DNA from: Cyanobacteriota bacterium
GTDB taxonomy: Bacteria > Cyanobacteriota > Cyanobacteriia > Cyanobacteriales > Nostocaceae
Direction of reading: 5' to 3'
Assembly: GCA_046045965.1 (NCBI GenBank)
Contig: JBJOKS010000025.1
Coordinates: forward strand, 34,188-98,187
Length of the DNA: 64,000 nt
Translations under genes and position numbers: made by a program
Part shown: positions 15,208-41,719 of the stretch, one piece after another
Numbering within the stretch: the first letter of the stretch is position 1
Layout of the letters: each line of letters starts with the position of its first letter
The notes under the pieces: model-generated
What the model saw: only the letters and a program-made list of their open reading frames with translations
Databases searched by the model: none
What the model was told of the DNA's origin: nothing

Positions 15208-16701
15208 ATGAACATATTTACATTATTTACCCAAGAAAACAATCATTCAGCCTTAATAACTCCTGATGGTGCTATCATTAACTATCAGCAGTTACGGGAA
15301 AATATCACTAAATTAGTCTCTCAACTCCACAGTTTTGGCTTAAAAAAAGGAGACAGAATAGCCATATCTATGAATAATGGTACACCAATGGCAATCACAT
15401 TTTTAGCATCGGCTTTGTGTGGAACTGCTGCACCATTAAACCCTAAATATAAACAAGACGAATTTAGTTTTTATTATCAAGATACCCAAGCTAAAGCATT
15501 AATTACATTACCCGGAACTTCAGAAGCAGCAATAGCAGCAACACCTGAGATGATGTTAATTAATGCCAATATTAATCATGATGGAACTTTAAACTTTGAA
15601 TTAGTGAAATCAACATCAGCAAAAACCATCAATACAGAACCGCCCGAAGCTGATGATATCGCTATGATTTTACATACTAGCGGTACTACCAGTCGTCCTA
15701 AACGTGTACCTATTCGTCATCGGAATTTAATCGCTTCTGCTAATAATATTATCGGTGCTTATTCCCTGACATCTGCTGATATTACACTTTGTTTAATGCC
15801 ACTTTTTCACATTCATGGTTTGGTAGGATGTTTATTAGCAACTCTCGCATCAGGAGGAACTTTAATTTGTCCCAATGGGTTTAATGCTTTGGAATTTTGG
15901 AAACTGGTAGAAACCTATAAACCTACTTGGTATTCTGCTGCTCCTACCATGCACCAAACAATTTTAGCACGGGCAATTCGTAACTTACAAATTGTCAAAA
16001 ATAACCCCTTCCGTTTCATTCGTTCTAGTAGTGCATCTTTAGCACCAGTTATCATTGAACAAATGGAAAATACTTTAAATTCTCCTGTTTTAGAATCTTA
16101 CAGTATGACGGAAGCAGCGCACTTAATGACAACAAACCCTTTACCACCAAAAACTCGTAAACCAGGAACTGTGGGTTATGGTTTTAATGTGGAAGTTGGT
16201 ATTATGGATGAAGCTGGAAATTTACTATCTCAAGGAAGTTTAGGAGAAGTAGTTGTTAAAGGTGCAAACGTTATTGATGGTTATGAAAATAACCCCGATG
16301 CTAATGCAACAGCTTTTGTTAATAGTTGGTTTCGTACAGGAGATCAGGGAACAATTGATGAAGATGGATATTTGCGTTTAACGGGTAGAATTAAAGAATT
16401 AATTAACCGGGGTGGAGAAAAAATTTCACCTTTAGAAATTGACGATATTTTATTACGTCATCCTGCGGTTTCTGAAGCTTTAGCTTTTGCTGTACCTCAT
16501 AAAAGTTTAGGTGAAGAAATTCATGCTGCTGTGGTTTTACAAGGTGAAATAACTGAAAAGGAACTGCAACAACATTGCTCAACTATGTTGGCTGATTTTA
16601 AAGTACCTAAACAAATTCATATTTTAGAAACTTTACCTCGTGGTGCGACGGGTAAATTACAACGTTTAGCGATGGCGAAATTATTGAATATTTCTGTCTG
16701 A
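15208..16701 (+). CDS. AMP-dependent acyl-CoA ligase, oxalate-CoA ligase (AAE3/Pcs60)-like
   Basis: ILHTSGTTSRPKRVP, MPLFHIHGL, TWYSAAPTMH, FIRSSSASL, ESYSMTEAAH, WFRTGDQG, INRGGEKISP, GATGKLQR. Confidence 0.85.
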   Translation: MNIFTLFTQENNHSALITPDGAIINYQQLRENITKLVSQLHSFGLKKGDRIAISMNNGTPMAITFLASALCGTAAPLNPKYKQDEFSFYYQDTQAKALITLPGTSEAAIAATPEMMLINANINHDGTLNFELVKSTSAKTINTEPPEADDIAMILHTSGTTSRPKRVPIRHRNLIASANNIIGAYSLTSADITLCLMPLFHIHGLVGCLLATLASGGTLICPNGFNALEFWKLVETYKPTWYSAAPTMHQTILARAIRNLQIVKNNPFRFIRSSSASLAPVIIEQMENTLNSPVLESYSMTEAAHLMTTNPLPPKTRKPGTVGYGFNVEVGIMDEAGNLLSQGSLGEVVVKGANVIDGYENNPDANATAFVNSWFRTGDQGTIDEDGYLRLTGRIKELINRGGEKISPLEIDDILLRHPAVSEALAFAVPHKSLGEEIHAAVVLQGEITEKELQQHCSTMLADFKVPKQIHILETLPRGATGKLQRLAMAKLLNISV

Positions 16702-16723
16702 TAGCGTAGCGTGGCGTAGCCAT
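16701..16723 (-). mobile_element. Very small dispersed insertion element (~23 nt), copy 1
   Basis: atagcgtagcgtggcgtagccat; its reverse complement matches 31281-31304 with one substitution and one indel. Confidence 0.7.
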
Positions 16724-16789
16724 ATCAGGATTTTCAGGATTGTGATTACAGGGACTGGCTGAGGTAAAATCTCAGCAGTAGTCATCTTG

Positions 16790-19513
16790 TTATTTGTTAG
16801 GAGATTTGAGATAATTTGCATCAATTGAAACAAATTTACCATCCTGAATCTGCACAAGCACAGCTTCGCCCTGACGCTCTCTTTCTTGTGTAAACTGAAG
16901 TGGATAACCGGATGTATCACTTTCGGAAAGTTTAACATTCTGTAATCCTTCTAATACCGTAGTTCGAGAAGGATCATTAGATAAAGCTTTAATCAAAGCC
17001 TGAGTAGCATCATAGCTGGTGGCAGTACGCCAACTAATGCCTCCTCTCCAGAATTGCTCGGATTTTTTAGCAAAGTTTTTAGCTTGTGCAGTTTCTCTAA
17101 ACCAAGGTACTGCAATTACTAAACCCTGTACATCCTTACCACCTCTGACTAAGGTTTCATTGTTATAAAGAGTATGTCCAGCTAACATTTTTAATTCTTT
17201 AATTTGCCCAGGTTGAGGATTATTCTTAAGTTTTTCGTTTCTACTTTTGATCTCTTTAGCAATGTTAATGGCAATATCTGTGTTTTGCGTATCTGGAAAT
17301 AAAAGTGCTGCTTCTGCTTTATCCGAATATACACTTTTAGCAACTTCTTTTTCCGCATCAAATGTATTAGCAGTTAAATCAATTAGTGGTTTACGAACTA
17401 CCTCACCTCCTAGTTTTTCAAAATAGTTTGTAAATGTCTCTCTGACGCTGTTACTATATGGGCTATTAGGATTAGCAAAAACTACTGCTTTTTTTAATTG
17501 CAGATTCTTATAAGTATAATCAGCTAATTTTTGACCAGCAATTTCATCTGAATAAACTGTTCTAAAGAAAACAGGGTTTTTTAGTAAAATGCTAGTGCTA
17601 GTGGGAGAAATTACTGCTAATCCTGCTTTTTCATATTCTGGTAGTGCTGCTTTTGTAGCATCACTGGAATTATGTCCAATTACTCCCAGTATTGAAGGAT
17701 CTTTAACTAATTCCTCAGCTACTTGTTTTGCTTTTTCTGATTCGTTACTATCATTAGCAATGATTATTTCTAATAATCTACCATTGAAGCCTTTATTTTT
17801 ATTGAATTCATTTTGTGCTTGTGCTACACCACGTAATATTTCTTGAGCATTATTGATGTTATTAACTGGCACAACCACTGCTAAAGTAAAAGGAGAACCC
17901 TGTTGACGAGCTAGACTATTGTTGTAGTAAATTAGCACTTCTGGATCATAGGGATTTGCTTTTACAGCTTGATTAAATAATTCATATGCTTGTGCGTAAT
18001 TTCCCTTTTTAATATTTTCAATTCCCTGATCACGAGGGATATTAGTAATATTAGGGAAGAAAGTTTTATTACTACGACTAATATTAATATTCTGTTCTGT
18101 TGTACAAAAAATACCTAATACCTTTTGTTCATTTGTTAAACAAGAGGTAGAACGATACAGAAAAGCAACCATAATAGCCAAAATAACTGCAACTATGGGT
18201 GCTATTTTGATTAGATTTAAAATAATCGGATTAAGTTTTGTTGAATTACTGTTGCTAGATTCATTCAATTCATAGGGAACATAACGAATATTATCCGTAT
18301 TTTCTTCTGTATTTTCAGTTATGATATTTACTTGATATTGATATGATTGATTTGCTGTTTCGTCACTAGAATTTTTTTTTTGCTCAAACTCAAATTTATC
18401 TAATTCATTAATTTCTTCTCTTAGTGGGTGACGTTGTATGATCCAGCGACGTACTAATTCTATTTTTATTTTCTCCTCTATTTCATCTAAAAAACCATTA
18501 TTTCTTAGAAGTTGCTTTGTTTCTATAATCAATTTATTATCTGTATCCGGTCTCAATCTTCTTATTAATTCGATATAATCTTCTGAATTTTCTTGAGCTT
18601 CTGCTATTGCTGCAAAAACCATTTTTTCTGGAATAGAAAATCCGTCCCAAAACCATGCTAAACCGGCTTCAGCCAATTCAATTGCTTTGCTGGTTATAGC
18701 TTCTACATCTTCACTACTAACTTTCCATTGATTATTTTCTCGCGCTCTACCAAAAATACTAAAACATATTGCTTGGGTAAAATAGGGATGTCCTGCTGAT
18801 AGATTAAAAATGGCTTTTATTGCATCTTTTTCATACTCAATGATATTTTCCGCTGGTTTAATAATTACATCTTTGGTACTGTTCTTGTCTAATAAACCAA
18901 TTTCTTTAATAGGTACATCCCTAAATATCTTACTTATCCTTGAGTTATTTACTGATTTTTGTTCTATAAATACAATCAAAAATAATTTTCTATTAACTTT
19001 AATTGTCGCCAACAAATATTTATAAACCTGTTCTAATAATAATTCTGAATCCTGATTATTTAGTAAGGCATCAAATTCATCAAGTAACAATACTAAATTT
19101 TTGTTTTCTAATGATTGATATACTTGCGGTAAAAATTCATGGGAAAAAATTTCAGTATTTAATTCTAGCTCTGTAATTTCCGGTACTTTGATATTTTCAT
19201 CATCCAAGGAGAGGTCACTAATTACTTCTTTAGCTAACTCTGCTAAAATTTTACTCAGCGAGTCTTGACTATAATATTCTAAATTAAATCTAACAAAAAC
19301 AAACTTATTTAAATCTGGAAGTTTATTAGGAATATTCCGAATGATAGATGACTTACCAATGCGTCGTTGACCATATAACAAGATGACTTGTTGACCTTGC
19401 TGGAGGTAATCATTAATAGATAAAAATAGGCTTTCTCGCCCAAAAAAGAACTGTTGGTCTATTGGACGACCAATAATGTATGGATTCCTTTGAGGCTTGG
19501 AAGAAGTAATCAT
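16790..19513 (-). CDS. STAND-like ATPase - TM - TPR - type I periplasmic-binding (LivJ-like) domain protein
   Basis: RNPYIIGRP..FFGRE, Walker A GQRRIGKSS, Walker B LVLLLDEFD, SAGHPYFTQ (GxP), TM IAPIVAVILAIMVAFLY, TPR, PBP1 motifs LEIIIAND, LGVIGHNSS, TSYDATQAL. Confidence 0.85.
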   Translation of the reverse strand: MITSSKPQRNPYIIGRPIDQQFFFGRESLFLSINDYLQQGQQVILLYGQRRIGKSSIIRNIPNKLPDLNKFVFVRFNLEYYSQDSLSKILAELAKEVISDLSLDDENIKVPEITELELNTEIFSHEFLPQVYQSLENKNLVLLLDEFDALLNNQDSELLLEQVYKYLLATIKVNRKLFLIVFIEQKSVNNSRISKIFRDVPIKEIGLLDKNSTKDVIIKPAENIIEYEKDAIKAIFNLSAGHPYFTQAICFSIFGRARENNQWKVSSEDVEAITSKAIELAEAGLAWFWDGFSIPEKMVFAAIAEAQENSEDYIELIRRLRPDTDNKLIIETKQLLRNNGFLDEIEEKIKIELVRRWIIQRHPLREEINELDKFEFEQKKNSSDETANQSYQYQVNIITENTEENTDNIRYVPYELNESSNSNSTKLNPIILNLIKIAPIVAVILAIMVAFLYRSTSCLTNEQKVLGIFCTTEQNINISRSNKTFFPNITNIPRDQGIENIKKGNYAQAYELFNQAVKANPYDPEVLIYYNNSLARQQGSPFTLAVVVPVNNINNAQEILRGVAQAQNEFNKNKGFNGRLLEIIIANDSNESEKAKQVAEELVKDPSILGVIGHNSSDATKAALPEYEKAGLAVISPTSTSILLKNPVFFRTVYSDEIAGQKLADYTYKNLQLKKAVVFANPNSPYSNSVRETFTNYFEKLGGEVVRKPLIDLTANTFDAEKEVAKSVYSDKAEAALLFPDTQNTDIAINIAKEIKSRNEKLKNNPQPGQIKELKMLAGHTLYNNETLVRGGKDVQGLVIAVPWFRETAQAKNFAKKSEQFWRGGISWRTATSYDATQALIKALSNDPSRTTVLEGLQNVKLSESDTSGYPLQFTQERERQGEAVLVQIQDGKFVSIDANYLKSPNK

Positions 19514-19588
19514 TTCTTGATCATAACTCTAAAAGGGTAATCTCAAGCGTCAATTTTCACTTTTCGTAAAATTTTGTAAAATTCATAT

Positions 19589-22500
19589 TTAGTTGCTCAA
19601 CTCAACAAACTGACCTCCCTTAACCTCTAAAAGAATTGACTTGCCTTGACGCTCTCTTTCTTGTGTAAACTGGAGTGGATAACCGGATGTATCACTTTCG
19701 GAAAGTTTCACATTCTGTAATCCTTCCAATACTGTAGTCCGTGAAATATTGTTAGATAAGGTTTTAATCAAAGCCTGAGTAGCATCATAGCTGGTGGCAG
19801 TACGCCAACTAATACCTCCTCCCCAAAATTCCTCTGATTTTTTGGCAAATTTTTTAGTTTGTGAAGTTTCTCGAAACCAAGGTACTTCAATGACTAACCC
19901 ATCCAGAAAGTTACCCCCTTTAACTAAAGTTTCATTGTTATAAAGAGTATGCACCCCCAAAATTTTTAATTCTTTGATTTGCCCAGGTTGAAGATTATTC
20001 TTAAGTTTTTCGTTCCTAATGGTAATCTCTTTAGCAATTTTAATGGCAACATTAGTATGCTGTGTATCTGGAAACAACATAGCTACTTCTGCTTTATCTG
20101 TATATACACTTTTAGCAACTTCTTTTTCCGCATCAAATTTATCAGCAGTTAAATCAATTAGTGGTTTACGAACTACCTCACCTCCTAGTTTTTCAAAATG
20201 GTTTGTAAATGTCTCTCTGACGCTGTTACTATATGGGCTATTGGGATTAGCAAAAACTATTGCTTTTTTTAATTGCAGATTCTTATAAGTATATTCTGCT
20301 AATTTTTGACCAGCAATTTCATCTGAATAAACCGCTCTAAAGAAAACTGGTTTGTCTAATAAAATACTCGTGCTGGTAGGAGAAATTACTGCTAATCCTG
20401 CTTTTTCATATTCTGGTAGTGCAGCTTTGGTAGCCTCGCTGGAGTTATGTCCAATTACTCCCAGTATTGAAGGATCTTTAACTAATTCCTCAGCTACTTG
20501 TTTTGCTTTGTTTGGTTCGTTACTATCATTAGCAATGACTATTTCTAATAATCTACCATTGAAGCCGTTATTTTTATTGAATTCATTTTGTGCTTGTGCT
20601 ATACCACGTAACATTTCTTGAGCATTAGTTGTGTTTTTGTCTGCTGGTACAACTACCGCAAAGGTAAAAGGAGAACCTTGTTGACGAGCTAGACTATTGT
20701 TATAGTAAACTAGCACTTCTGGATCATTTTGATTTGCTTTTACAGCTTGTTTAAATAACTCCTCAGCTTGTTGATAATTACCTTTTTTGAAGGCTTGAAC
20801 ACCTTGATCACGAAACTTATTGCTAATGTTAGGAAAAATGGTTTTATCGCCCCGACTAATTCTACTATTATCTGCTACACACCAAAACCCAAATTCTTTT
20901 TTTTCTCCTACTGCACAAGGCTTGCTAAAGAATACTGTATAACCACCTAAACCCACAAGCAAAATTATAGCTAATCCTCCTAGAAATCCTTTAAATCTTA
21001 AAACCCAGTTCAGCCAGTTTGAAATTGTATTAGTATTTATATTGACAGATGCGACAGGTGCAGGAGGTGCAGGATTTTTATCTCCAACTTGAAGATTCGT
21101 TCTAGATTTCAGAGTTTGAATTTCTGCTAATTTTTGTTTAGATAATTTCCTGTTAGGATCAATTTGTAAAACAAGCGTAAACTGTTCTTCTGCCTTAGAC
21201 CATTCTTTATTAAGTATTAATTCATGTCCATAATCTTCTCTTACTTCTATTAGAACATCTTTACTTTGTTCACTATCAATTTGGTAAGCTATTGTACCAA
21301 TTTCTAATGCTTGCTCAAAATTTTGAGCTTGTGATTTTTGTTGAGCTAGTGTTAGTAAAGGTTGTACAATTAATTCTTGTTGATGATGATTAGTTTGAGA
21401 ATAAAATTGATAAACTCGATTATATAGATTACTAGCTTCATCTATATTTTGTATCTTCAAATATTCTTGAGCTAAAGAAATAACACATTTAAAATTATTA
21501 GGATTAAGTTTGACGGCTTCTTTATAAAGAGACAATGCTGTTTCAGGCTGATTTTGGCGTAAATTCTCGGCTACTGATAATAACTGACTAACATCATCTT
21601 GGTTAATTTTCTCTAAGTTAGTAATTTCATCTTTTAAGCGATGTTCTTTCACTAACCAAAGACGGACAAACTCTATTTTCACTCGCCGTTTTGTCTCATC
21701 TAAAAAACCATACTCAGATAATTGTTCGTATGCGTCTGTTAAATATTGTGTTATTACTATACCATAGTCATTGGTTAATAATGTTAGTGGTTCTTCAATA
21801 ACAGATTGATTGTTTTTGTTTGCTATTTCTTGAGCCTCTGCTGCGGCTGCAATAATTATTCGCTGCTGCAAATTCAATCCATCCCAGAACCAAGCTAAAC
21901 CAGCTTGTCCTGCTTTGATTGCTTGATTTATAACATTTTCAACATTTTGAGGAGTGATAGTCCGTAAATCATCATTGGGTTTTTTTTGATAGTTATTACG
22001 TACTTGACCATAAATAGCGTGGCAGATAACTTGCGTAAAATAGGGGCTTCCAGCACATATATTGAAGATGGTATCTATGGTTTCTGGTTGATATGTTAAA
22101 ATGCCTTCTGCGGGTTTAGTAATTAATTCTTCGGTTTTATCTTTCTGCAACAGAGTAATTTCTTTATAGAGTGCTGTCCGCAAAAAAGAAAGTAAGGTTT
22201 CTAATTTATTTATATTTCTCCCTACAACGGGAATAATAAATAATCTTTCCTCTTGAGCTAATAGTTGTAGAATATAATCACAAAATATTCTGGTTTCTGT
22301 CTCATCATCTCTTGCAATTAGAACATCAAACTCATCCCAAAGAAAAACTATTTTTTTATCACCTATGTTTTGATAAACTTGAGGTAGAAAATCACGAGAA
22401 AACCTTGGAAAATCGGTTCTTATATTTTCTGCTAACTGTTCTAAAACATCAGGATCATCTTGGAAATCTAATATTTCTAAAATTTTATAGGCAATACTAC

Positions 22501-22771
22501 ATAAAATTTGAGAATTAGATGAGTTTGATTGAGCTTGAAAATCAAACTCTATGAAAATAAATTCATCGCTACCAATCTTTTGAGGAATTAAATTAAGTAT
22601 AGAAGATTTACCAATACGTCTTTGTCCATACAATAAAGTTAATTGTGCATTTTGGAGAAGACTATCAGCAATCAGAGAAAATAAATCTTCCCGCCCAAAA
22701 AATTTGTCTGGGTCTCTAATCGGACGGCCTATAATGTAAGGATTAGGAGGTAGATTTGGTATATTAGTCAT
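19589..22771 (-). CDS. STAND-like ATPase - cytoplasmic TPRs - TM - TPR - type I periplasmic-binding domain protein (paralog)
   Basis: PNPYIIGRP..FFGRE, GQRRIGKSS, VFLWDEFD, CAGSPYFTQ, TPR-like helices (ALSLYKEAVKLNP; AEEQFTLVLQIDP), TM FLGGLAIILLVGLGGY, PBP1 C-terminus. Confidence 0.85.
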   Translation of the reverse strand: MTNIPNLPPNPYIIGRPIRDPDKFFGREDLFSLIADSLLQNAQLTLLYGQRRIGKSSILNLIPQKIGSDEFIFIEFDFQAQSNSSNSQILCSIAYKILEILDFQDDPDVLEQLAENIRTDFPRFSRDFLPQVYQNIGDKKIVFLWDEFDVLIARDDETETRIFCDYILQLLAQEERLFIIPVVGRNINKLETLLSFLRTALYKEITLLQKDKTEELITKPAEGILTYQPETIDTIFNICAGSPYFTQVICHAIYGQVRNNYQKKPNDDLRTITPQNVENVINQAIKAGQAGLAWFWDGLNLQQRIIIAAAAEAQEIANKNNQSVIEEPLTLLTNDYGIVITQYLTDAYEQLSEYGFLDETKRRVKIEFVRLWLVKEHRLKDEITNLEKINQDDVSQLLSVAENLRQNQPETALSLYKEAVKLNPNNFKCVISLAQEYLKIQNIDEASNLYNRVYQFYSQTNHHQQELIVQPLLTLAQQKSQAQNFEQALEIGTIAYQIDSEQSKDVLIEVREDYGHELILNKEWSKAEEQFTLVLQIDPNRKLSKQKLAEIQTLKSRTNLQVGDKNPAPPAPVASVNINTNTISNWLNWVLRFKGFLGGLAIILLVGLGGYTVFFSKPCAVGEKKEFGFWCVADNSRISRGDKTIFPNISNKFRDQGVQAFKKGNYQQAEELFKQAVKANQNDPEVLVYYNNSLARQQGSPFTFAVVVPADKNTTNAQEMLRGIAQAQNEFNKNNGFNGRLLEIVIANDSNEPNKAKQVAEELVKDPSILGVIGHNSSEATKAALPEYEKAGLAVISPTSTSILLDKPVFFRAVYSDEIAGQKLAEYTYKNLQLKKAIVFANPNSPYSNSVRETFTNHFEKLGGEVVRKPLIDLTADKFDAEKEVAKSVYTDKAEVAMLFPDTQHTNVAIKIAKEITIRNEKLKNNLQPGQIKELKILGVHTLYNNETLVKGGNFLDGLVIEVPWFRETSQTKKFAKKSEEFWGGGISWRTATSYDATQALIKTLSNNISRTTVLEGLQNVKLSESDTSGYPLQFTQERERQGKSILLEVKGGQFVELSN

Positions 22772-23028
22772 AATTGTATATTGATTTTCTCATCTATTGA
22801 AAAGATTTTATCAACGCCACATTAGGTTAACAATGTGTTATGTAAGATCCCATTAATAGGGAAGATTAGGAGAACTTCCCTATTCAGTCCAGTTGCTAGT
22901 TATTTAGTTGATGCTTGTAATGGATAATTTTCAGAAAAATTCCGTTGTTATCCCGTGAATCTTTTAATCCTAGACATCCTGATGAAAATACTTTACCCAA
23001 CTAGCAACTTAGATGATTAGGAATTTTA

Positions 23029-24312
23029 TTATGGCAAGAATGTTAATAGTTTCGGAATCCAATTTAACACGGTTTTGACTTTATCAGGATTCTGTGTTAA
23101 CCAAGTTACGAAGTTTTTAACTTGATCCAATTGTTTATGACTAATGAGATTTAGAAATAATTGGTTCTCTGCAAAGAATTGTTCTGATGTATTTAATATT
23201 TCCTGTGTTGCCCTTTTTTTCATCAGTGGTGAAGTAAAGGAATACAACTTGACTGAATCTGTAATAGTAGAAGTAATTACACCTCTATCTTCTAATTTAT
23301 TTAAAAGACGTTCATGCTGAGTCATAATTCTTCCTATGCCTTTTAAATTATATTTTGTATCATTTATATGACCATCCAGATCCAGCAAAGCTATCAGCAT
23401 CAATAAAAGCTGTTCTGTAGGATTACATCTTTGCCAAATTACCTCAAAAATCTGTCTAGTATCGGCTTCAAATCTCTGAGCAAATGATTCAGAATTAGCA
23501 TCCTGACCTCGCTGCATTTCTCTATATATTAAAAGTCCACCAATTTGTACTAAACTAGGATGTCCACCTGTAATATTGATAATTTCACCCCGTAATGTTG
23601 GAGGTCTAACAATATTCAAGATTTGCACCAATTCGCTAGTATTAAATAGTTTCAGGGATTGAAATAAATAGTGATTGTACCAAGGAGAAGCATGAGGATT
23701 AAGTTGAGGTCCCAGGTCACTTAGGGGTTGCAGTGAGGTAACAATCATAGATAGATATTCACTTTCTTCTGCATGAACCGCCAAACTACGACATTCTGCC
23801 AAAAATGTTTCCATTTCTGTTTCAGTGTATTGTTCGTTTGTTACCAAAGCTGCATCAAAGTCATCTACTAACAGTAATAAAAATTTACCATTATCACCTA
23901 ATTTCCGTAATGCTTGGCGGATAATGCGACTTGTAGCTGGTTTTTCTAGTAAGGGTTGAATTTTAGCTTGTAATTGTGGTTCATTATCTAATTGATCATG
24001 TAGCAAATTTAAGATTTCTTGCCAAAACCGAGCAGGTGTGAAGTCCCTAATATCTTGGCAGTAGAGTAGTACAACTGCAACTTCAGATGGATCTATGCCA
24101 TGTTCCTTTAGTGCTTGTTTAGAAGCAAGTTTCCTTAAAAATGAGGTTTTACCCATCCCCGGACCTCCCCAAATGGCAAAATGGCTGCGGTTACAGATTT
24201 GGTCAAAGGCAAAGTTAATTTCTGATCTCCGTCCGACAAAATGTTCTGGGGGAACTGCTCTTCCGGGAAAAAAGGGATTAGACATGGTAATTTTACTGAG
24301 TTTTTTAACCAA
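23029..24312 (-). CDS. Soluble STAND-like P-loop ATPase (likely start MSNPFFPG at 24285)
   Basis: NPFFPG..FVGRRSE, Walker A GGPGMGKTS, Walker B LLLVDDFD, ITGGHPSLVQ (GxP), winged-helix-like LEDRGVI. Confidence 0.85.
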   Translation of the reverse strand: MVKKLSKITMSNPFFPGRAVPPEHFVGRRSEINFAFDQICNRSHFAIWGGPGMGKTSFLRKLASKQALKEHGIDPSEVAVVLLYCQDIRDFTPARFWQEILNLLHDQLDNEPQLQAKIQPLLEKPATSRIIRQALRKLGDNGKFLLLLVDDFDAALVTNEQYTETEMETFLAECRSLAVHAEESEYLSMIVTSLQPLSDLGPQLNPHASPWYNHYLFQSLKLFNTSELVQILNIVRPPTLRGEIINITGGHPSLVQIGGLLIYREMQRGQDANSESFAQRFEADTRQIFEVIWQRCNPTEQLLLMLIALLDLDGHINDTKYNLKGIGRIMTQHERLLNKLEDRGVITSTITDSVKLYSFTSPLMKKRATQEILNTSEQFFAENQLFLNLISHKQLDQVKNFVTWLTQNPDKVKTVLNWIPKLLTFLP

Positions 24313-24639
24313 TCAAATTCTACTTGTGCATAAAGTATATTGATTCTCTGCACAGGGTTTTTACTGAATTGCTTTTACTTATCAAGATAATACATTAACA
24401 GTATATATTTAATAGCATAATACTTATCTATAGGTTGCATCATATTACATAGATAATATTAATTTGGGCAAATGCTTTCTCTCTGTGGGTTCTACTATTA
24501 TCTGACGGTAAAGCATTGTGAACAATTGTTTTGAATAAAGTTTCGATCCAGTTTTCTCAGAAGATGCTTTAAAATTCAAAAACAGCTTATTTTATTACAA
24601 TTCAATTACAGTAAAATTTTATTCAAATTAATTCCTTTT

Positions 24640-25617
24640 ATGAAAATCTGTATTGTTGGTGCTGGTGCTATTGGTGGTTTGCTCGGTGCTAAGTTAAGTT
24701 TAGCAGGTGAAGAAGTAACTTTAATTGCTCGCGGTGAGCATTTACAAGCTATCCAAAAAAATGGACTGCGGTTAATATCTGCTGATGGTTCTGAATTCGT
24801 TGCTAACCCAGCTTTAGCTACCAGTGATATTACAGAAGTTTCTCCCCAAGATGTTCTAATTTTAGCTGTTAAAACTAATAGTGTAGAAGCGATCGCTCCC
24901 GTGCTTCCCCATCTCTATCATGACACAACAATGGTAGTTACAGCCCAAAATGGTGTTCCTTGGTGGTATTTCCGCAAACACGGGGGGGAGTACGAAGGGA
25001 CAAACATCAAATCAGTTGATCCAGATGGTATAATTGAAAACTCTATTAATATTGATCGGGTAATTGGTTGTGTGGTTTATCCCGCTGCGGAAATAGTAGA
25101 ACCTGGAGTAATTAAGCACATTGAAGGTGAAAGGTTTACCCTGGGAGAAATTGACGGTTCTAAAACTGAACGTATCCAATTATTATCCCAAACTTTAAAA
25201 AAAGCCGGATTTAAAGCCCCTGTACGCAATCAAATTAGAACAGAAATATGGGTAAAATTATGGGGTAATATTGCTTTTAATCCCATTAGTGCTTTAACTG
25301 GTGCAACGCTGGAAAGTATTGCTAAATATTCCCTTACCCGTGAACTAGCTAAAAATATGATGTTAGAAGCTCAAACAATAGCCGAAAAATTAGGTATCAA
25401 TTTTGGCATTAGCTTAGAACAGCGAATTGATGGTGCTGAAAAAGTTGGCGCTCATAAAACCTCAATGTTACAAGATATCGAAGCGGGACGACCAACAGAA
25501 ATAGAAGCGATTGTTGGTGCAGTGATAGAATTAGGTAAACTCACGCAAACACCCACACCTTATATTGATGCGGTTTACGCCAGTGTTAAATTATTGGAAG
25601 CTACCCATCAAAATTAA
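24640..25617 (+). CDS. panE: 2-dehydropantoate 2-reductase family protein (PanE/ApbA; PanE2-like clade)
   Basis: GAGAIGG, LAVK, AQNGVPWWYF, WVKLWGNIAFNPISAL, HKTSMLQDIEAGRPTE. Confidence 0.9.
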   Translation: MKICIVGAGAIGGLLGAKLSLAGEEVTLIARGEHLQAIQKNGLRLISADGSEFVANPALATSDITEVSPQDVLILAVKTNSVEAIAPVLPHLYHDTTMVVTAQNGVPWWYFRKHGGEYEGTNIKSVDPDGIIENSINIDRVIGCVVYPAAEIVEPGVIKHIEGERFTLGEIDGSKTERIQLLSQTLKKAGFKAPVRNQIRTEIWVKLWGNIAFNPISALTGATLESIAKYSLTRELAKNMMLEAQTIAEKLGINFGISLEQRIDGAEKVGAHKTSMLQDIEAGRPTEIEAIVGAVIELGKLTQTPTPYIDAVYASVKLLEATHQN

Positions 25618-25765: not shown

Positions 25766-27058
25766 ATGAAAATTATTGCTTACAGTTATAGTGATCCACT
25801 CTTGGAAACATCTCCTGATCAAGCTAGTTGGGGTTGGGAAGTAGATCGAATTTATCAGGACTGGGGAGAGCGATCGCAATTACAACAATTATTAAATGAC
25901 TGTGAAACAGAACCTGCAAATTATTTACTGATTCGTCGTTTAGAAGAATTGGGAGATACATTAGCACAAGTTAGCGATCGCCTCAACCAATTAGAAGCTA
26001 TGGGGGTAATAGTTATTGCTACAGAACAAAAATATACCTCCGAAGCTGCTAACTTCCGCATTGAACTCCTAAACTTACTCCAAGAAATTCAACGTCAACA
26101 ACGCAGTCGCCGCATCCGTCAAGGACACGCTAAAAATCGTCTCGAAGCTTCACCACCACCAGGTAAAGTCCCCTATGGCTATCGCAAAAGTAAAGGAAAA
26201 TATACTATTGATCGCAGTACATCGCCGATAGTCAAAGATTTTTTTGACAACTTTTTACTTTATGGTTCTTTACGTGGTTCAGTTCGTTATATAGCCAAAA
26301 AATACGCTAAAAAAATCTCTGTCACTACAGGAAGACGTTGGTTAACAAATCCCGTTTATCGTGGTGATACCGCTTATCAAAATGGGGACATTATTTCTGA
26401 TACTCATCTAAGTATTATTTCTAGGGAAGAAGCAGCGCAAGTTGACCGACTTTTACGCAGGAATAGCCGTTTACCATCTCGTACCGCTAGTGCGCCTCAT
26501 TCTTTAGCTGGTTTGGTTGTTTGTCAACAGTGTCAGTCTCGGATGGTAGTCACTCGTGTTACTCAGCGTTATCAAAATCAAGAGTATTTATATTTACGCA
26601 ATACAAATTGTCCCCAAAGTCCTAAATGTCGTGCTATTCCTTACCAAGATATTTTGGAAAAGACTATTGAAATTGTTTGTCGAGATTTACCTTTAGCAGT
26701 ATCAGGAATGAATTTTCCCCAACTGGATGCTATTAAAAATAGCTTAAATGAGAAAATTAGCAATCAACAAAATATTCTTGAACAATTACCAAATTTACTA
26801 GAAACTGGGGTTTTAGATCAAGAAACAGCAAAATTAAGGTCTTACAAACTCCGCACAGAAATTTCTCAACTTCAAGCTAAGTTAGCTATTCTCCCTCCTG
26901 TAAATTTACGTTCTGTGGCGGAAGCTGTTTCTATTCCCCAGTTTTGGTTAGATTTATCAGAAGTGGAACGACGATTTTATTTACGGGAATTCATTCGGAA
27001 AATAGATATCATAAGGAATGGTAAAGATTGGGATTTACAGGTAATTTTCATTTTTTGA
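25766..27058 (+). CDS. Large serine recombinase-family protein with degenerate catalytic domain
   Basis: Recombinase domain PPGKVPYGY, WLTNPVYRG, H.SIIS; Zn ribbon LAGLVVCQQC..C; coiled coil; N-terminal AYSYSD in place of YxRxS. Confidence 0.8.
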   Translation: MKIIAYSYSDPLLETSPDQASWGWEVDRIYQDWGERSQLQQLLNDCETEPANYLLIRRLEELGDTLAQVSDRLNQLEAMGVIVIATEQKYTSEAANFRIELLNLLQEIQRQQRSRRIRQGHAKNRLEASPPPGKVPYGYRKSKGKYTIDRSTSPIVKDFFDNFLLYGSLRGSVRYIAKKYAKKISVTTGRRWLTNPVYRGDTAYQNGDIISDTHLSIISREEAAQVDRLLRRNSRLPSRTASAPHSLAGLVVCQQCQSRMVVTRVTQRYQNQEYLYLRNTNCPQSPKCRAIPYQDILEKTIEIVCRDLPLAVSGMNFPQLDAIKNSLNEKISNQQNILEQLPNLLETGVLDQETAKLRSYKLRTEISQLQAKLAILPPVNLRSVAEAVSIPQFWLDLSEVERRFYLREFIRKIDIIRNGKDWDLQVIFIF

Positions 27059-27107: not shown

Positions 27108-28634
27108 TTAATCTTCATCTCTACTTCTAGATGATTTTGTTGATTTACCAGCATTTCTAACATTCATGACTTTACTAAGTAAATCAAACCAAAAAGGCGC
27201 TCCCATTGCAATAGCCAAACCACTAATTAACCAACCACAAAACATGGTTAACAAACTGAAAACAGGCACGCCATTTATCTTAATCGGATTCCAGCCAATT
27301 TGATCTTGTAGGTTATCACTAGTCCAACCAATTGGTAAATTAATTTCTTCTAAAATCTGTTGAGTATCAAAATTTTGGAGGCTGGAAGGATCAGATTGTT
27401 TATCTATTGTTTGTTCTACTTTATAAACAATTGCTTCTCTCAACACTGTATCTTTAGATAATCGATCAATGATATGAAATGTATCAGCATTAGCACCAAA
27501 AGCTAAAGTAATACCAATCAAAATTGCCACTCCTTTAGCATTTCGTTTGTAAACACCACCGGCTCGTTGCATAGAACTATCAAAACAGTCTTCAATTTCC
27601 CTGCGTAAGATTTTAATACCTTCCTCTGTGCTTTTAGCTTTGTATTGCGCTCGCTTGGCTATAGTTGCAATATTCCTTTTCATCCCATCTGGGAGACTAT
27701 CAACTAATTCTCGAATAGTCTTATATGTGGGATTATCTCGGTCTTGTAGAGTGGTTTCGATTTCATTATAAACAGCTTGACTTGTATCCATTAATTCTAC
27801 AATTTCGCCAATATTAGGTTTTAAACCGCCGATGATTATTGCTTCTTCAATGCTGGGAAATATATGTTGATGGAAGGCTTGCAATCGTTTCCAGGTTTCT
27901 GTTAAAATCTTATTTTCATTTTCTATATTCGCTTGAAAATTATCTATATATTTAGCCAAGCTATCTTTCATCCGACTAACACTGCTATCTATATCCAATT
28001 TGTTATTTCTAAAATCAAAAACAATTTGTGAATATTCTAACTTGAGATTTTCAAAATCATCTTTGATATCCTTGGTAATCTGATTTGATAATTCAGTAAC
28101 TTTGAGTTGTCTTAGTGACCTAGTTAAAATTGTTTCCACTTCTTGCAAGCGTTCATTTTTGAATTTTTCTAGCCTGACTTCTGTTAAACTATGGATTATT
28201 TTTGGTAGTTTTAATTCCTCTAGAAGAGTTGTAGCAAAAGTATCAGTAGCAATATAGGAAGGCGCACTATTTTCCTGGTCAAACGTCTTCTCATTATATG
28301 AGCAGTTAGTTATTGATTTTCGTATTGGACGACTGATATCAGCTATCATCCAAGTCAATCTTCTTGGTAATATAGAGAAAAAACCTTTAGCTTCTTGGTT
28401 AATACTTTTAATTAAAGGATTTCTATAAATATTATTGACGAGTTTAATTACATCCTTTGCCTCTGAATTTTTAACATCTCCAGCCAAGAAAATTTCAATG
28501 GATTTCTTTAAGTGTATAGCTCGCCATTGCAGAACTGTAGCAATTAGCTCTTGAATCTCTGATGCTAATAAACTTAAAATTAGGTAAATAAAAATTAAAC
28601 CCAGGGCGACATCTAAGATAAAAGGTAGACGCAT
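27108..28634 (-). CDS. Hypothetical membrane protein (508 aa)
   Basis: N-terminal TM (LDVALGLIFIYLILSLLAS), helical middle, C-terminal TMs ending GWLISGLAIAMGAPFWFDLL. Confidence 0.8.
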   Translation of the reverse strand: MRLPFILDVALGLIFIYLILSLLASEIQELIATVLQWRAIHLKKSIEIFLAGDVKNSEAKDVIKLVNNIYRNPLIKSINQEAKGFFSILPRRLTWMIADISRPIRKSITNCSYNEKTFDQENSAPSYIATDTFATTLLEELKLPKIIHSLTEVRLEKFKNERLQEVETILTRSLRQLKVTELSNQITKDIKDDFENLKLEYSQIVFDFRNNKLDIDSSVSRMKDSLAKYIDNFQANIENENKILTETWKRLQAFHQHIFPSIEEAIIIGGLKPNIGEIVELMDTSQAVYNEIETTLQDRDNPTYKTIRELVDSLPDGMKRNIATIAKRAQYKAKSTEEGIKILRREIEDCFDSSMQRAGGVYKRNAKGVAILIGITLAFGANADTFHIIDRLSKDTVLREAIVYKVEQTIDKQSDPSSLQNFDTQQILEEINLPIGWTSDNLQDQIGWNPIKINGVPVFSLLTMFCGWLISGLAIAMGAPFWFDLLSKVMNVRNAGKSTKSSRSRDED

Positions 28635-37133: not shown

Positions 37134-39029
37134 TTACCTTTTACCAATGTTAACTGTATTGATGGTTTGTAATAATTGAGTTGCTGTAAAAGGTTTACAC
37201 AAGAAGGCTTTGACACCCATATCATAAGCTGCGTTGACTTTATCGCTGGGTGCTAGTCCGCTGACAGCAATAATTTTGACATTAGGATTAATTTTTTTGA
37301 GGGTACGGATGCTGGTTAGTCCATCCATTGATGGCATGACTATATCAGTTAATACTAGGGCTATTTGATCACGATGTTCTACATATACAGCGATCGCTTC
37401 AATGCCATTACAGGCGGTAATGACTTGATAATTATAGCTTTCTAATGAGGTTTTTGTAATGTCACAAATAGCGGCTTCATCATCAACAACTAATATCAAT
37501 TCTCCATTACCTTGAGGTAAAGATATGTCAGATTCTTCGATAATTTCGTTTGTATCTTGTGCTGGTAAATATATTTTAAATTGGCTGCCTTTTTTTTCTT
37601 CGCTATAAACATTGATAAAACCACCATGACTTTTAACAATTCCCAAGACTGTGGAAAGACCTAAACCAGTACCTTGACCAAATTCTTTTGTAGTAAAAAA
37701 TGGTTCAAATATTCGGTCTATAATTGCAGATTTAATACCAATTCCTGTATCAGTTACCGTAATTACTACATAAGGACCGGGTTGAGCATCAATGTGCATT
37801 TGGGCATAATTTTGATCAATTAGGATATTTTCAGAAGTAATTGTTAAAGTCCCACCATTAGACATAGCATCACGGGCGTTGACACATAAATTCATTAACA
37901 CTTGATGTAATTGCGTAGCATCACCAGATACAGTCCAAAGATTTTGGGGAATTTGGGTGTTTACTTGAATAGTTTTGGGAAATGTTTCTTTAATAATTTG
38001 CTGAATTTCTATTATTAAATGTTTTAATTGTAAAACTGTGCGATCGCCATCTATGCCTCTAGCAAAAGATAATACTTGTTTAACTAAATTCGCGCCCCGT
38101 TTAGCATTAGAAATTAATATAGGTATGAGTCTGCGAGATCGTTCATCTTTAATTTGAGTTTCCAAAATTTGTGCTGTCATCAAAATTGGTGCGAGGACAT
38201 TATTTAAGTCGTGAGCGATACCACTAGCTAAAGTACCTATACTTTCTAATCTTTGGGCGCGCAAAAATTGCTGTTCTAGTTGCTTTTTTTTGGTAATATC
38301 TGTGTTGACAACTAAAATAGATTGGGGCTTGTTTCCAAATGCGGATATTAGGGTCCAACGACTTTCAACTATTATTTTTTTACCACATTTGGTAATTTGC
38401 TCTAGTTCTCCTTTCCAAGAACCATTTTTAATGAGTATTTTGAATGCTTCTGATAATTGAGATAATTTTTTTTCTGGACAAAAATGCCGGATTTTTTTGG
38501 TCAAAGCTTCTTCTGTACTCCAACCATAAAGACGTTCAGCGGCTTTGTTCCAAAATAAAATTTTATCATCTAAATCACCGACAAAAATAGCATCGGTAGC
38601 GACATCAAGTAAGGCTGCTTGTTGACGAATTTTTTGTTCTGTTTGTTTGCGCTCAATGGCATAGCGAATTGATCGTTCTAATAAAGGTGCAGTTAATTGA
38701 CTTTTTTCCAAATAATCTACTGCTCCGGTTTTCATGGCTTCTATATCTATTTCTCTATCGCCTTGACCAGTGAGTAAAATAAAGGGACAATTACAACCGT
38801 TTTCAATAGCTTCGCGCAACAATTCTAAACCATTATCGGCTCCTAAACGGTAATCTATTAGATAAATATCATGTTGGTGTCGAGCGATAAATTCTCTAGC
38901 TAATTGATAATTTTCTACCCATTCTAATTCACAACCAGTTACCTGAAATTCCTTAAACCAATCACGAGTTAAAATATAATCATCTTCATCATCATCAACT
39001 AACAAAACTTTAATGATTCTATCATTCAT
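37134..39029 (-). CDS. Hybrid histidine kinase REC-PAS-HisKA-HATPase-REC
   Basis: VLLVDDDEDD, PAS WNKAAERLYGW, GIAHDLNN, NLCVNARDAM, GTGLGL, ILVVDDE. Confidence 0.92.
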   Translation of the reverse strand: MNDRIIKVLLVDDDEDDYILTRDWFKEFQVTGCELEWVENYQLAREFIARHQHDIYLIDYRLGADNGLELLREAIENGCNCPFILLTGQGDREIDIEAMKTGAVDYLEKSQLTAPLLERSIRYAIERKQTEQKIRQQAALLDVATDAIFVGDLDDKILFWNKAAERLYGWSTEEALTKKIRHFCPEKKLSQLSEAFKILIKNGSWKGELEQITKCGKKIIVESRWTLISAFGNKPQSILVVNTDITKKKQLEQQFLRAQRLESIGTLASGIAHDLNNVLAPILMTAQILETQIKDERSRRLIPILISNAKRGANLVKQVLSFARGIDGDRTVLQLKHLIIEIQQIIKETFPKTIQVNTQIPQNLWTVSGDATQLHQVLMNLCVNARDAMSNGGTLTITSENILIDQNYAQMHIDAQPGPYVVITVTDTGIGIKSAIIDRIFEPFFTTKEFGQGTGLGLSTVLGIVKSHGGFINVYSEEKKGSQFKIYLPAQDTNEIIEESDISLPQGNGELILVVDDEAAICDITKTSLESYNYQVITACNGIEAIAVYVEHRDQIALVLTDIVMPSMDGLTSIRTLKKINPNVKIIAVSGLAPSDKVNAAYDMGVKAFLCKPFTATQLLQTINTVNIGKR

Positions 39030-39045
39030 GATTGCCTCTTACTGC

Positions 39046-39513: not shown

Positions 39514-39628
39514 TAGTTACTTGTATTAATTAGGTATTTAATTATGCAATTGCCATCAACTGCCATCCACATTTGTATAATTAACCTCATTTTAGGGTGT
39601 ATTAGTAATCCCTCTCTAGGAAGAAAAA

Positions 39629-41707: not shown

Positions 41708-41719
41708 TAGTAAGTGACT

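Follow-up and report, generated by a model that had tools for sequence, protein, structure and literature searches.

Can a soluble ATPase and two ATPases that carry a periplasmic-type binding domain beyond a hydrophobic helix belong to one signalling system? The question is raised by three neighbouring genes in a 64,000-nucleotide stretch of cyanobacterial DNA (the window). The ORF listing bears out the positions and lengths given for them in an earlier note made from the sequence alone: all are co-oriented on the minus strand, as are all features located below, in the order gC, a soluble STAND-like NTPase with an ATPase_2 fold (23029-24312, 427 aa as listed), gB, a predicted proximal single-pass receptor (19589-22771, 1060 aa), and gA, a predicted distal single-pass receptor (16790-19513, 907 aa). 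The listed start codon of gC is TTG; since its homologues and the Atlas record begin at residue 10 (ATG, window position 24285), the true start is probably that ATG, which would yield a protein of 418 aa.

The three ATPases have a set of motifs in common, all of which are present as the earlier note had described. Each protein has NP(Y/F)..G.P..F.GR at its N-terminus, followed by Walker A (GQRRIGKSS in gA and gB, GGPGMGKTS in gC), Walker B (DEFD in gA and gB, DDFD in gC) and a GxP motif (AGHP in gA, AGSP in gB, GGHP in gC). The motifs are not chance matches, since their positions are fixed or almost fixed in alignments of 31 receptor-type N-domains and of 27 gC homologues. The NPY..GRP..FFGRE motif of gA (19433-19486, residues 10-27), whose residues N10, P11, Y12, G15, P17, G25 and R26 vary little or not at all among the 31 sequences, has its equivalent in gB at 22688-22744. 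Walker A is found at 19346-19372 in gA (residues 48-56), at 22601-22627 in gB and at 24142-24168 in gC (residues 49-57), where none of the 27 homologues departs from G54 or S57 and K55 is nearly invariant. The P-loop lysine is substituted in some distal receptors (L046, L047, L061 and one L064 copy) and in the gC of L047, which suggests that some subunits need not hydrolyse NTP.

The predicted structures agree with the STAND-type fold proposed for the N-terminal domains. The AF2 model of gA 1-400 (pLDDT 89.6, pTM 0.85) shows a P-loop core, a GxP lid and a winged helix, and that of gC (pLDDT 83.1) a P-loop core, a GGHP lid, a winged helix and a conserved C-terminal helical extension of about 65 residues (23032-23229, residues 362-427). 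NTPase, lid and winged helix together occupy residues 1-375 of gA (18389-19513) and 1-385 of gB (21617-22771). Pfam assigns gA to ATPase_2 (40.0 bits, cut-off 33.2) and AAA_22 (2e-8), gB to nSTAND1 (30.6 bits, cut-off 27.1), and gC to AAA_22 (2.6e-9), AAA_16 and NACHT (28.2 bits, cut-off 26.7). When compared with solved structures (VIA), gA 1-400 best matches 2qen (Z 23.1, 326 residues aligned) and 2fna (Z 20.2), followed by Orc2 (Z 18.1) and plant NLRs (Z 17.9 for wheat 9h2l, and 17.0), while Avs3, Avs5, MalT, CED-4 and NLRC4 score Z 13-15 (the first three 14-15); about 300 residues of the NLR NB-ARC modules can be aligned to the gA model. The order of matches is the same for gC (2qen Z 18.9, 2fna Z 17.2), with the ORC/Cdc6 DNA-binding initiators at Z about 15. 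The domains are thus STAND-like, but the term NLR-like fits their architecture and not close kinship, because in both fold and sequence they are closest to ATPase_2 (PF01637) proteins and ORC/Cdc6, and the plant NLRs rank after these. Since the best relatives are ORC/Cdc6 and ATPase_2 proteins, the latter without known function, STAND-type ligand-gated oligomerisation can be applied here only as an analogy. BLAST detects no similarity of gC to gA or gB; hhalign aligns gC with the receptor ATPases over 285 columns (probability 99.2%, E 1.9e-19), and they are distant paralogues, related at the profile level only.

The archaeal proteins 2qen (Pyrococcus abyssi PABY2304) and 2fna (Sulfolobus SSO1545) are ATPase_2 members, reportedly placed in the MNS clade of STAND by Leipe et al. 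in 2004. In a HMMER alignment gA shares with 2qen the G.RR.GK[ST]S P-loop and an N-terminal F.(G)RE strand. Unlike gA and gB, these proteins are soluble and about 350 aa long, whereas the cassette adds TPRs, a TM helix, a periplasmic PBP and a dedicated paralogue. The MNS clade is also cited in PMC8195603. With the STAND and NLR switches (9h2l, 9qlv, Avs3 8dgc, EfAvs5 9jap, MalT 8bob, CED-4 and NLRC4), which align with gA over about 280-305 residues at Z 13-18, the cassette has in common the P-loop, GxP lid and winged helix and the C-terminal repeat or sensor domains, nSTAND1 in gB and NACHT in gC lying just over their Pfam cut-offs. In contrast to these switches, the receptors have no N-terminal effector, their NTPase beginning at about residue 10; their sensor appears to be a small-molecule flytrap on the other side of the membrane; and an obligate soluble paralogue is encoded upstream. 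The matches of these switches to the cassette ATPases are weaker than those of ATPase_2 and about equal to those of ORC/Cdc6.

What lies behind the ATPase domains distinguishes gA and gB from gC. Hydropathy finds exactly one strongly hydrophobic segment in each receptor, at residues 434-452 of gA (18158-18214) and about 590-614 of gB (20930-21004); gC has none, and in none of the three does the N-terminus contain a signal-like segment. Before the helix, gA has a low-complexity linker (residues 376-433) and gB the cytoplasmic TPRs that had been noted in the 1060-aa protein (21092-21613, residues about 387-560, with Pfam TPR matches at about 387-503). Beyond it, both proteins have the Cys pair, the one TPR and the periplasmic-binding domain that had been noted. 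The periplasmic part of gA (16793-18157, residues 453-907) contains Cys458 and Cys470 in a juxtamembrane Cys-x11-Cys (18104-18142, residues 458-470), a TPR at about 497-530 and Peripla_BP_6 at 557-892 (2.6e-32); that of gB (19592-20929, residues 615-1060) contains the juxtamembrane pair Cys619/Cys631 (20879-20917), a TPR at 656-683 and Peripla_BP_6 at 716-1039 (3.2e-29). The ANF_receptor model also matches both (45.1 bits in gA and 43.2 in gB, cut-off 25.4). Because a single hydrophobic helix separates a signal-less ATPase part of 430-590 aa from the PBP, we infer that gA and gB are N-in single-pass inner-membrane proteins with ATPase and PBP on opposite sides of the membrane, as had been proposed, an orientation called from hydropathy and the missing signal peptide only, the flanking charges not being decisive. 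Of 37 receptors, 36 have a single hydrophobic segment that separates the PBP from the ATPase/TPR part, and 36 have the Cys pair; its two columns are conserved at 87% and 76% in 45 sequences that include kinase- and caspase-fused homologues.

The module of TM helix, Cys pair, TPR and PBP is also found, at 52-56% identity, on a Ser/Thr kinase (P0186, 52% over 97% of the module length) and on a caspase-type peptidase (P0158, Peptidase_C14, 56% to the gA periplasmic module, Cys pair included); judging from its attachment to these other heads, it behaves as a portable extracytoplasmic input. Type I PBP flytraps are used by ANF-type receptors and class C GPCRs. As in the kinase P0186, a type I PBP would here signal from outside to inside across one helix; unlike P0186 and the ANF-type receptors, with their kinase or cyclase output, the cassette has a nucleotide-switch ATPase and no catalytic output domain. 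The closest solved relatives by sequence, which align to the N-lobe of the PBP, are the amino-acid binding proteins 3td9 (3.7e-13), 4gnr and LivJ 1z15 (8e-7), which suggests an amino-acid- or amide-like ligand. These relatives are branched-chain or general amino-acid binding proteins, Peripla_BP_6 lies well over its cut-off, and databases name the family 'ABC transporter substrate-binding protein', all of which would suit a 'transceptor', in which a substrate-binding protein tethered to the membrane supplies or gates an ABC importer of the Liv/HAAT type and the cytoplasmic ATPase part is a regulatory appendage. We find this very doubtful. The Peripla_BP_6 fold is indeed shared with the LivJ/LivK/HAAT family, but the PBP of gA and gB is neither free nor lipid-anchored, has neither signal peptide nor lipobox, and is fused behind a TM helix that itself follows a cytoplasmic NTPase part of 430-590 residues; neither next to the cassette nor elsewhere in the window are there permease or ATPase genes of the Liv type, and a transporter family recurs among the neighbours in 3/29 loci at most; gC is the sole conserved neighbour, and kinase and caspase heads bear the same module. 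The family, with 879 database relatives at E<=0.001, is common rather than rare, but mis-named.

The topology predicted for gA and gB, an N-in ATPase joined by a single TM helix to a binding domain in the periplasm, is also that of ExeA/GspA-type proteins, which organise the envelope. Were the cassette an envelope-assembly or mechanical ATPase that organises a cell-envelope or septal structure, and not a signal receptor, the AAA_22 matches of gA and gC would fit, as would its occurrence in only 4 of 38 families sampled across the phylum and among relatives whose source names are mostly filamentous genera. Nevertheless, we consider this highly improbable: the combination of GxP lid, winged helix and TPR is a switch-type (STAND/ORC-like) and not a motor-type architecture, the periplasmic domain is a solute-binding flytrap and not a peptidoglycan-binding domain, and no secretin or envelope gene is conserved near the cassette in the neighbour survey of 29 loci.

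That the cassette is real, with soluble and receptor-type ATPases co-conserved in other genomes as the earlier note expected, is seen in the 35 loci fetched around gC homologues, in every one of which (35/35) gC is either fused to a receptor-type ATPase domain or has one immediately after it. A stand-alone gC followed by a same-strand receptor-type gene, often 20 bp away or overlapping, is the arrangement in 33 of them, and in the other two (L054 and L056) the gC domain exists only in fused form. Together with these two, five more loci (7/35 in all) have both ATPases in one ORF, in the order receptor-ATPase, TPR, gC-type ATPase. gC is also present in 30 of 32 genomes with a strong receptor-type match, and any further gene family in the neighbourhood is shared by 4/29 loci at most. 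Homologues of gC occur in 33/121 genomes of the same family and in 20/301 sampled across the phylum. Of the idea of a constant soluble ATPase with variable sensors, the constant gC stands, but the PBP-type receptor is missing from 14/35 loci; the core of gC and receptor ATPase therefore works with other C-terminal modules or with none, and periplasmic sensing is an option and not its essence.

The soluble ATPase had been proposed as a partner of the receptors, and this gains support from the fusions at 7/35 loci and from a complex model. The suggested multimer modelling was run for gA 1-400 and gC with our own alignments and three controls, and gave a median score of 0.69 against 0.01 for the best control, although the model could pass via resemblance to solved AAA+/ORC oligomers and gives no affinity. 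The complex-score mark is reached by 116/157 solved complexes and 2/215 mismatched pairs, counts that are only rough here because our own alignments were used. The runs share at least 89% of contacts, with a partner pLDDT of at least 81. The modelled interface (gA residues 9-17 and 279-291, gC residues 196-219) coincides with the most conserved family-specific motifs: it takes in the gC motif SPWYNHYLF (23662-23688, residues 209-217), in which S209, P210, W211, N213, H214, Y215 and F217 are invariant in the gC homologue alignment, and the N-terminal motif of gA described above is modelled in contact with gC helix 29-46.

Predicted binding of gC to the receptor ATPase also bears on a doubtful reading in which transcription is controlled by membrane sequestration, gC being a DNA-binding regulator that the receptors hold or release according to ligand. 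gC is constant and soluble, has a winged helix and the conserved 65-residue extension, and is near ORC/Cdc6 in fold. However, profile searches gave gC no match to a DNA-binding family, a winged helix is a standard STAND/ORC element that does not imply DNA binding, no conserved target gene adjoins the cassette, NtcA-type sites upstream are not enriched (2/35 loci against 4.1 expected from shuffles), and the promoter scan did no better than shuffles.

We return to a hetero-oligomeric, membrane-spanning STAND-type signalling switch, to which we give a probability of roughly one half. Outside the membrane, a small periplasmic ligand would be bound by a part made up of a stalk that probably has a disulphide, a single TPR and a Venus-flytrap of type I (LivJ/HAAT-like); inside, each receptor would have an ATPase_2/STAND-type nucleotide switch of P-loop core, GxP lid and winged helix, to which gB adds TPRs. 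Ligand binding would alter receptor pairing or packing across the membrane, and the altered packing would release the nucleotide switch for head-to-tail assembly with the soluble paralogue gC, which may be a common partner or output subunit serving one to three receptors. As the output, gC or a client bound to the TPRs could be recruited or released. As the earlier note had it, no enzymatic effector is visible: a search of the window and of the fetched loci turned up neither an output domain nor a conserved effector gene in the window itself or at 33/35 loci. Literature searches found no published description of the cassette, which looks like an unstudied route for an external chemical signal into filamentous cyanobacteria.

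It is possible, though unlikely, that multicellular cyanobacteria instead use the cassette in conflict, defence or programmed cell death: its periplasmic domain would sense external danger, kin or a lysis-derived metabolite, and a STAND-like assembly would trigger effectors of cell fate whose genes lie at other loci, orthocaspases or CHAT proteases for example. Its patchy spread within the family (it was not found in the two other same-genus genomes examined) and its fold relationship to Avs and NLR proteins are consistent with this, as are receptor-ATPase variants elsewhere that carry NNH3 and pentapeptide repeats or neighbour an nSTAND1 protein. The fusion-type loci L054 and L056 lie directly downstream of CHAT-domain genes, but the N-terminal extension of these fusions has no similarity to CHAT proteins. 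The cyanobacterial caspase P0158 bears the same periplasmic module, and Kaur et al. 2020 (eLife, PMC7159879) mention an architecture of caspase, TM segment and extracellular PBP for the EACC1 'System 4', which they describe as mainly actinobacterial. The single pass and extracellular PBP of that system are like those of P0158, gA and gB; as described there, its head is a caspase and not an NTPase, and its partner gene EACC1 and not gC. Against such a module, gA and gB went unmatched in the PADLOC scan proposed earlier and gC matched mad8 alone, and weakly (2.5e-4), no effector was found in the window or at 33/35 loci, as stated above, type I PBPs take small solutes and not phage proteins, and the sensor is not hypervariable but conserved and homogenised within genomes, the periplasmic module being homogenised between two tandem receptors in 8/15 genomes.

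Parts of gA, gB and gC are matched at >=99% identity by RNA-library contigs, one of which (X1 record 7, 22708-23376, 0 differences) bridges the gC-gB junction; their source is metatranscriptome libraries, in which DNA may be present, and a two-gene contig does not prove a single transcript. The gC-gB spacer itself (22772-23028, 257 bp) exceeds that of most related loci, whose genes overlap or are separated by 20-100 bp.

The three genes of the earlier note were recovered as open reading frames exactly where it had placed them, co-oriented on the minus strand: gC, the soluble ATPase (23029-24312, minus; 427 aa as listed), gB, the proximal single-pass receptor (19589-22771, minus; 1060 aa), and gA, the distal one (16790-19513, minus; 907 aa). 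The listed TTG start of gC is probably wrong, since homologues and an Atlas record start at residue 10, i.e., at the ATG at 24285. The motif series claimed for all three products was likewise found in each: an N-terminal NP(Y/F)..G.P..F.GR, then Walker A (GGPGMGKTS in gC, GQRRIGKSS in gA and gB), Walker B with two acidic residues (DDFD in gC, DEFD in gA and gB) and a GxP motif (GGHP in gC, AGSP in gB, AGHP in gA). The Walker motifs are kept across our alignments of 31 receptor-type N-terminal domains and 27 gC homologues; in the GxP lid, G241 and P243 are invariant in the former, and P252 is invariant and H251 nearly so in the latter. Per Pfam, gA contains ATPase_2 (40.0 bits against a cut-off of 33.2) and Peripla_BP_6 (2.6e-32), gB contains nSTAND1, TPRs on either side of the helix and Peripla_BP_6 (3.2e-29), and gC retrieves AAA_22, AAA_16 and NACHT (the last at 28.2 bits against 26.7). 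Against the nSTAND1 cut-off of 27.1 bits, gB scores 30.6, gA 25.9 and gC 20.4. The gB product is not listed for ATPase_2 at E<=0.01, yet it is 40% identical to gA across the domain. NCBIfam gave LivJ-type and Orc1/Cdc6 matches, all sub-threshold, and nothing further.

By hydropathy, gA and gB each have one strongly hydrophobic segment (434-452 and about 590-614, respectively), gC has none, and no N-terminal signal-like segment is present in any of the three. The predicted single transmembrane helix of each receptor stands, as do the Cys pair, the TPR behind the helix and the type I periplasmic-binding domain (PBP) of both. Among 37 full receptors compared, 36 have a single hydrophobic segment between the ATPase/TPR part and the PBP, and 36 have a Cys-x(8-16)-Cys pair closely following the segment. 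The PBP matches 3td9 (3.7e-13), 4gnr, 4mlc, LivJ (8e-7) and AmiC (7e-4); in sequence it is nearest, among solved structures, to amino-acid-binding cluster-B proteins, from which no ligand assignment follows. A search with the module alone retrieved matches at 52-56% identity across about 97% of its length, and placed it after a Ser/Thr kinase in P0186, after a Peptidase_C14 caspase in P0158, after cytoplasmic TPRs alone, and, in other filamentous genera, after short N-terminal extensions. The Cys pair is retained in the kinase and caspase forms. Because the same module is found behind kinase, caspase, TPR-only and short heads, it behaves as a portable extracytoplasmic input.

The type I PBP fold is shared with LivJ/HAAT binding proteins, and a tethered transporter binding protein would be the reading of gA and gB by name: among 879 database entries related to gA at E<=0.001, the best 120 are nearly all Nostocales proteins of 850-1050 aa with the same Pfam set, and their source name is "ABC transporter substrate-binding protein". 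We consider this reading very unlikely on grounds of topology and because transporter genes are absent. LivJ/HAAT proteins are exported, free or as lipoproteins, with an N-terminal signal peptide, whereas the PBP of gA and gB lies behind 430-590 predicted cytoplasmic residues and an internal transmembrane helix; and they come with cognate permease and ATPase genes, whereas none occur within the window and no neighbour family recurs in more than 4 of 29 related loci. The label misstates the architecture of hundreds of such entries from the bloom-forming Nostocales Dolichospermum, Aphanizomenon and Cuspidothrix, as named by their sources.

STAND NTPases are reportedly defined by a P-loop NTPase, a GxP-ended helical lid, a winged helix, and ligand-controlled nucleotide exchange and oligomerisation. 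Structures were predicted from the two alignments for gA 1-400 (pLDDT 89.6, pTM 0.85) and gC (pLDDT 83.1, pTM 0.77), and both contain a P-loop core, a helical lid and a winged helix; like STAND NTPases, gA, gB and gC combine Walker A/B, a GxP lid and a winged helix. When the gA model was ranked against all representatives, the top places went to two ATPase_2 structures, 2qen (Z 23.1 over 326 residues) and 2fna (Z 20.2), followed by Orc2 (Z 18.1), two plant NLRs (9h2l at Z 17.9 and 9qlv at Z 17.0, over about 305 residues), and Avs3, EfAvs5, MalT, CED-4, NLRC4 and ZAR1 (Z 13-15). The gC model gave the same order (2qen 18.9, 2fna 17.2, ORC about 15, NLRs about 14, with the plant NLRs at 14.1 and 13.7); across the two models, the alignments to plant NLRs span 295-305 residues. 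Foldseek concurs (Orc2 3e-9, 2qen 9e-9). A receptor-ATPase profile searched against PDB sequences returned marginal matches only (2qen 0.013, 2fna 0.29). With 2qen, 2fna and Orc2 ranked beside or above NLRs, the modelled gA and gC domains are STAND-like in architecture and nearest to ATPase_2 (PF01637), for which gA also exceeds the gathering score, with ORC/Cdc6 about as close as NLRs. The description of these proteins as NLR-like STAND ATPases hence holds for the NBD-HD-WHD module and not for the closeness to NLRs, as the fold cannot separate STAND from ORC-like AAA+ when ATPase_2 scores higher and ORC/Cdc6 about equally. An ExeA-like envelope-assembly ATPase is, in our view, very unlikely. 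BLASTP detects no similarity between gC and gB (E 4.3); their kinship is visible profile-to-profile only (hhalign probability 99.2%, E 1.9e-19, 285 columns), at which level gC and the receptor ATPases are distant paralogues.

Of 121 genomes sampled in the home family, 33 have gC homologues (26 of 68 genera); the two other genomes of the same genus gave none. Of the 32 other genomes in which gC was matched, 28 provided neighbourhoods (29 loci; ORFs mapped by phmmer), the remaining four having matches that were fragmentary or at a contig end. At 27 of the 29 loci a stand-alone gC is followed directly by a same-strand receptor-type ATPase gene, and at the other two (L054 and L056) a gC-type domain is fused behind a receptor-type ATPase. 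Throughout the phylum, 20 of 301 genomes searched by profile have gC, in four families only, and the adjacency recurred in all six loci fetched outside the home family. The genes are co-conserved, with gC and a receptor-type ATPase adjacent or fused in all 35 fetched loci. In the reverse direction, gC is present in 30 of 32 genomes with a strong receptor-type ATPase match; the two exceptions, in whose genomes the search found no gC, have lone stubs of about 510 aa that lack a PBP and, by hydropathy, end just after the hydrophobic helix (L068 4655-6175, plus; L069 7775-9346, minus). Short receptor-type genes of about 500-525 aa without a PBP were also seen at L048 (8400-9902, plus) and L059 (7098-8624, minus), and all four may be receptors cut short or a short form in its own right.

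Clustering of 214 neighbouring ORFs from the 29 loci yielded no family in more than four loci besides the cassette, and no conserved effector or ABC-transporter neighbour. In the window, the cassette is flanked by ordinary genes, one acyl-CoA-synthetase-like and one for a ketopantoate reductase; a large serine recombinase (25766-27058, plus; 430 aa; Resolvase, Recombinase, Zn_ribbon_recom) lies 1.4 kb upstream of gC. A tie between this recombinase and cassette mobility is unsupported, since no recombinase is among the neighbour families recurring in three or more of the 29 related loci.

A complex of ATPase domains was modelled, as a heterodimer of gA 1-400 and gC, each with its own alignment. 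The pair passed its controls, with a median score of 0.69 against 0.01 for the best of three; that mark was attained by 116 of the 157 complexes with solved structures and by 2 of the 215 mismatched pairs, counts that hold only roughly here because our own alignments were used. At least 89% of contacts agree between runs, with partner pLDDT of at least 81. The modelled interface involves, in gA, the NPY motif (9-17), the surroundings of the P-loop and Walker B, and 279-291 (GLAWFWDG), and, in gC, residues 29-46 and 196-219 (the invariant SPWYNHYLF). The predicted contact is head-to-tail and AAA+-like, via the most conserved family-specific residues, although its score may be partly owed to solved AAA+/ORC assemblies and speaks neither to affinity nor to events in the cell. 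Transcription control through sequestration of gC would also involve a receptor-gC contact; we regard it as unlikely.

A second link comes from locus architecture. One or two full PBP receptors, as in the window, are present at 21 of the 35 loci, and seven loci (L037, L040, L041, L054, L056, L058, L064) have single ORFs of about 950-1060 aa in the order receptor-ATPase, TPR, gC-type ATPase, which make a Rosetta-stone link between both ATPase types. Behind the receptor-ATPase and TPR there may otherwise be no tail (about 650 aa), a KAP/AAA_16-like NTPase, or NNH3 plus pentapeptide repeats, and one variant has a second ATPase-TPR unit ahead of the PBP (1508 aa). At L057 (8285-13179, plus), a gC/receptor-ATPase pair is followed by a KAP-like NTPase of 447 aa and a protein of 1193 aa whose nSTAND1 domain is strong (3.8e-30), so that four different switch NTPases cluster there. 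Some subunits have another residue in place of the P-loop lysine, namely the distal receptors of L046, L047 and L061, one copy in L064, and the gC of L047; such losses are common in hetero-oligomers with labour divided between subunits. The gC homologue of L061 (11989-13313, minus) is apparently a broken gene, now in separate ORFs of 173 and 266 aa; both PBP receptors downstream of it are intact.

The two receptors of the window are far more alike in their sensors than in their switches: by BLASTP, 77% identical over the helix and periplasmic part and 40% over the ATPase (82% and 38.5% by a MAFFT measure). In 8 of the 15 loci with exactly two full receptors, the PBPs of one locus are closer to each other than to any PBP from another locus (e.g., 90% vs 66% and 91% vs 68%, within vs between loci). 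In contrast, the ATPase domains pair most closely within the locus in only 1 of 15, and otherwise with positional orthologues. By these pairings, the sensor is repeatedly homogenised within a genome and the switch domains keep their distinctness. Such an evolutionary signature is unusual and wants explanation. It fits two receptors reading one ligand, or flytraps obliged to pair; simple gene conversion between tandem copies may also account for it.

Parts of gA, gB and gC are covered, at 99% identity or more, by contigs of two metatranscriptome libraries. One of these (X1 record 7; 22708-23376, no differences) joins the 3' end of gC to gB through the 257-bp spacer; libraries of this type may include DNA, and a two-gene contig is no proof of a single transcript. 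Gaps covered by neither run (e.g., 17985-18755 and 21583-22610) are given no meaning. The distance from gC to the next gene, 20 bp or an overlap in many related loci, argues for an operon. Contigs from the second library (X2) diverge from the window within the gC-gB spacer (loose ends 22894 and 22928), pointing to a near relative with a different spacer. A promoter/terminator consensus scan of 16500-24800 was uninformative (35 promoter-like sites vs 34.0 in shuffles, 4 terminator-like vs 4.2). Within 400 bp upstream of gC, NtcA-type sites (GTAN8TAC) occur at 2 of 35 loci (4.1 +/- 1.9 in shuffles), a test that gives no sign of nitrogen control.

The best-supported reading, to which we assign a rough probability of 0.5, is that a ligand would gate a membrane-spanning STAND-type switch, which would then assemble with its soluble paralogue gC. 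A more specific version can be offered tentatively: a bacterial "outside-in" NLR-type machine in which one to three membrane-spanning sensor NTPases that would read a periplasmic small molecule by their Venus-flytrap domains co-assemble, nucleotide-dependently, with the helper gC, serving cell-fate or filament decisions in multicellular cyanobacteria. If true, it would parallel, in prokaryotes, the sensor/helper NLR pairs, joined to an ANF-receptor-like input.

A conflict or cell-death module, suggested by the patchy distribution and by CHAT and caspase links, seems to us rather doubtful, as PADLOC matches and effectors are lacking and the sensor is not hypervariable. The PADLOC check put forward in the earlier note (2023 library) assigned gA and gB to no family and gC to a weak mad8 match (2.5e-4), setting them apart from the anti-phage STAND systems (Avs, bNACHT) in that library. 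Nor do gA, gB or gC have the N-terminal nuclease, protease, SIR2, TIR or similar effector of Avs and bNACHT: the NTPase motif runs from residue 10, no effector family is matched in Pfam, and the cassette, as first described, encodes no effector. At L054 and L056, where only the fusion is present, it lies directly downstream of CHAT-domain genes; no adaptor domain shared between its N-terminal extension of about 140 aa and the adjacent CHAT proteins was detected (BLASTP E 1.2 and 6.6).

STAND and NLR switches are familiar as sensors inside the cytoplasm, and here a nucleotide switch of STAND/NLR type is wired through the membrane to a solute-binding flytrap, always with a soluble paralogue. If the ligand-gated co-assembly model holds, this would be a bacterial transmembrane signalling class that is neither two-component, kinase, cyclase nor chemoreceptor, and a tractable model for sensor/helper NTPase co-assembly. 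All parts are of known kinds; what is new is the combination, the topology and the obligate paralogue. No description of the ATPase-TM-PBP family or its gC partner was found in the STAND/nSTAND1, periplasmic-binding and orthocaspase literature, largely outside subscription journals, nor in passages of PMC8195603, PMC10907252 and PMC7159879. The nearest printed statement mentions caspase, TM and extracellular PBP proteins within the EACC1 system (Kaur et al. 2020, PMC7159879), in whose "System 4" a 5' EACC1 TM gene precedes a 3' gene for an N-terminal-caspase protein. In contrast, the upstream gene here is gC, without a hydrophobic segment, and there is no caspase in gA, gB or gC, Peptidase_C14 being present only in the distant homologue P0158.

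Other features of the window include an ORF (27108-28634, minus; 508 aa) without a Pfam match at 1e-5, and three PAS/GAF histidine kinases in a row, of which two are hybrids, together with a single-domain response regulator (37134-44545, minus); these probably form a multi-step phosphorelay cluster. Two adjacent ORFs of about 407 aa without a Pfam match (47014-48237 and 48319-49545, plus) directly follow an MBOAT O-acyltransferase gene (45457-46968), with which they might form a polysaccharide-modification set. An N6_N4 DNA methyltransferase gene lies at 54340-55272 (minus).
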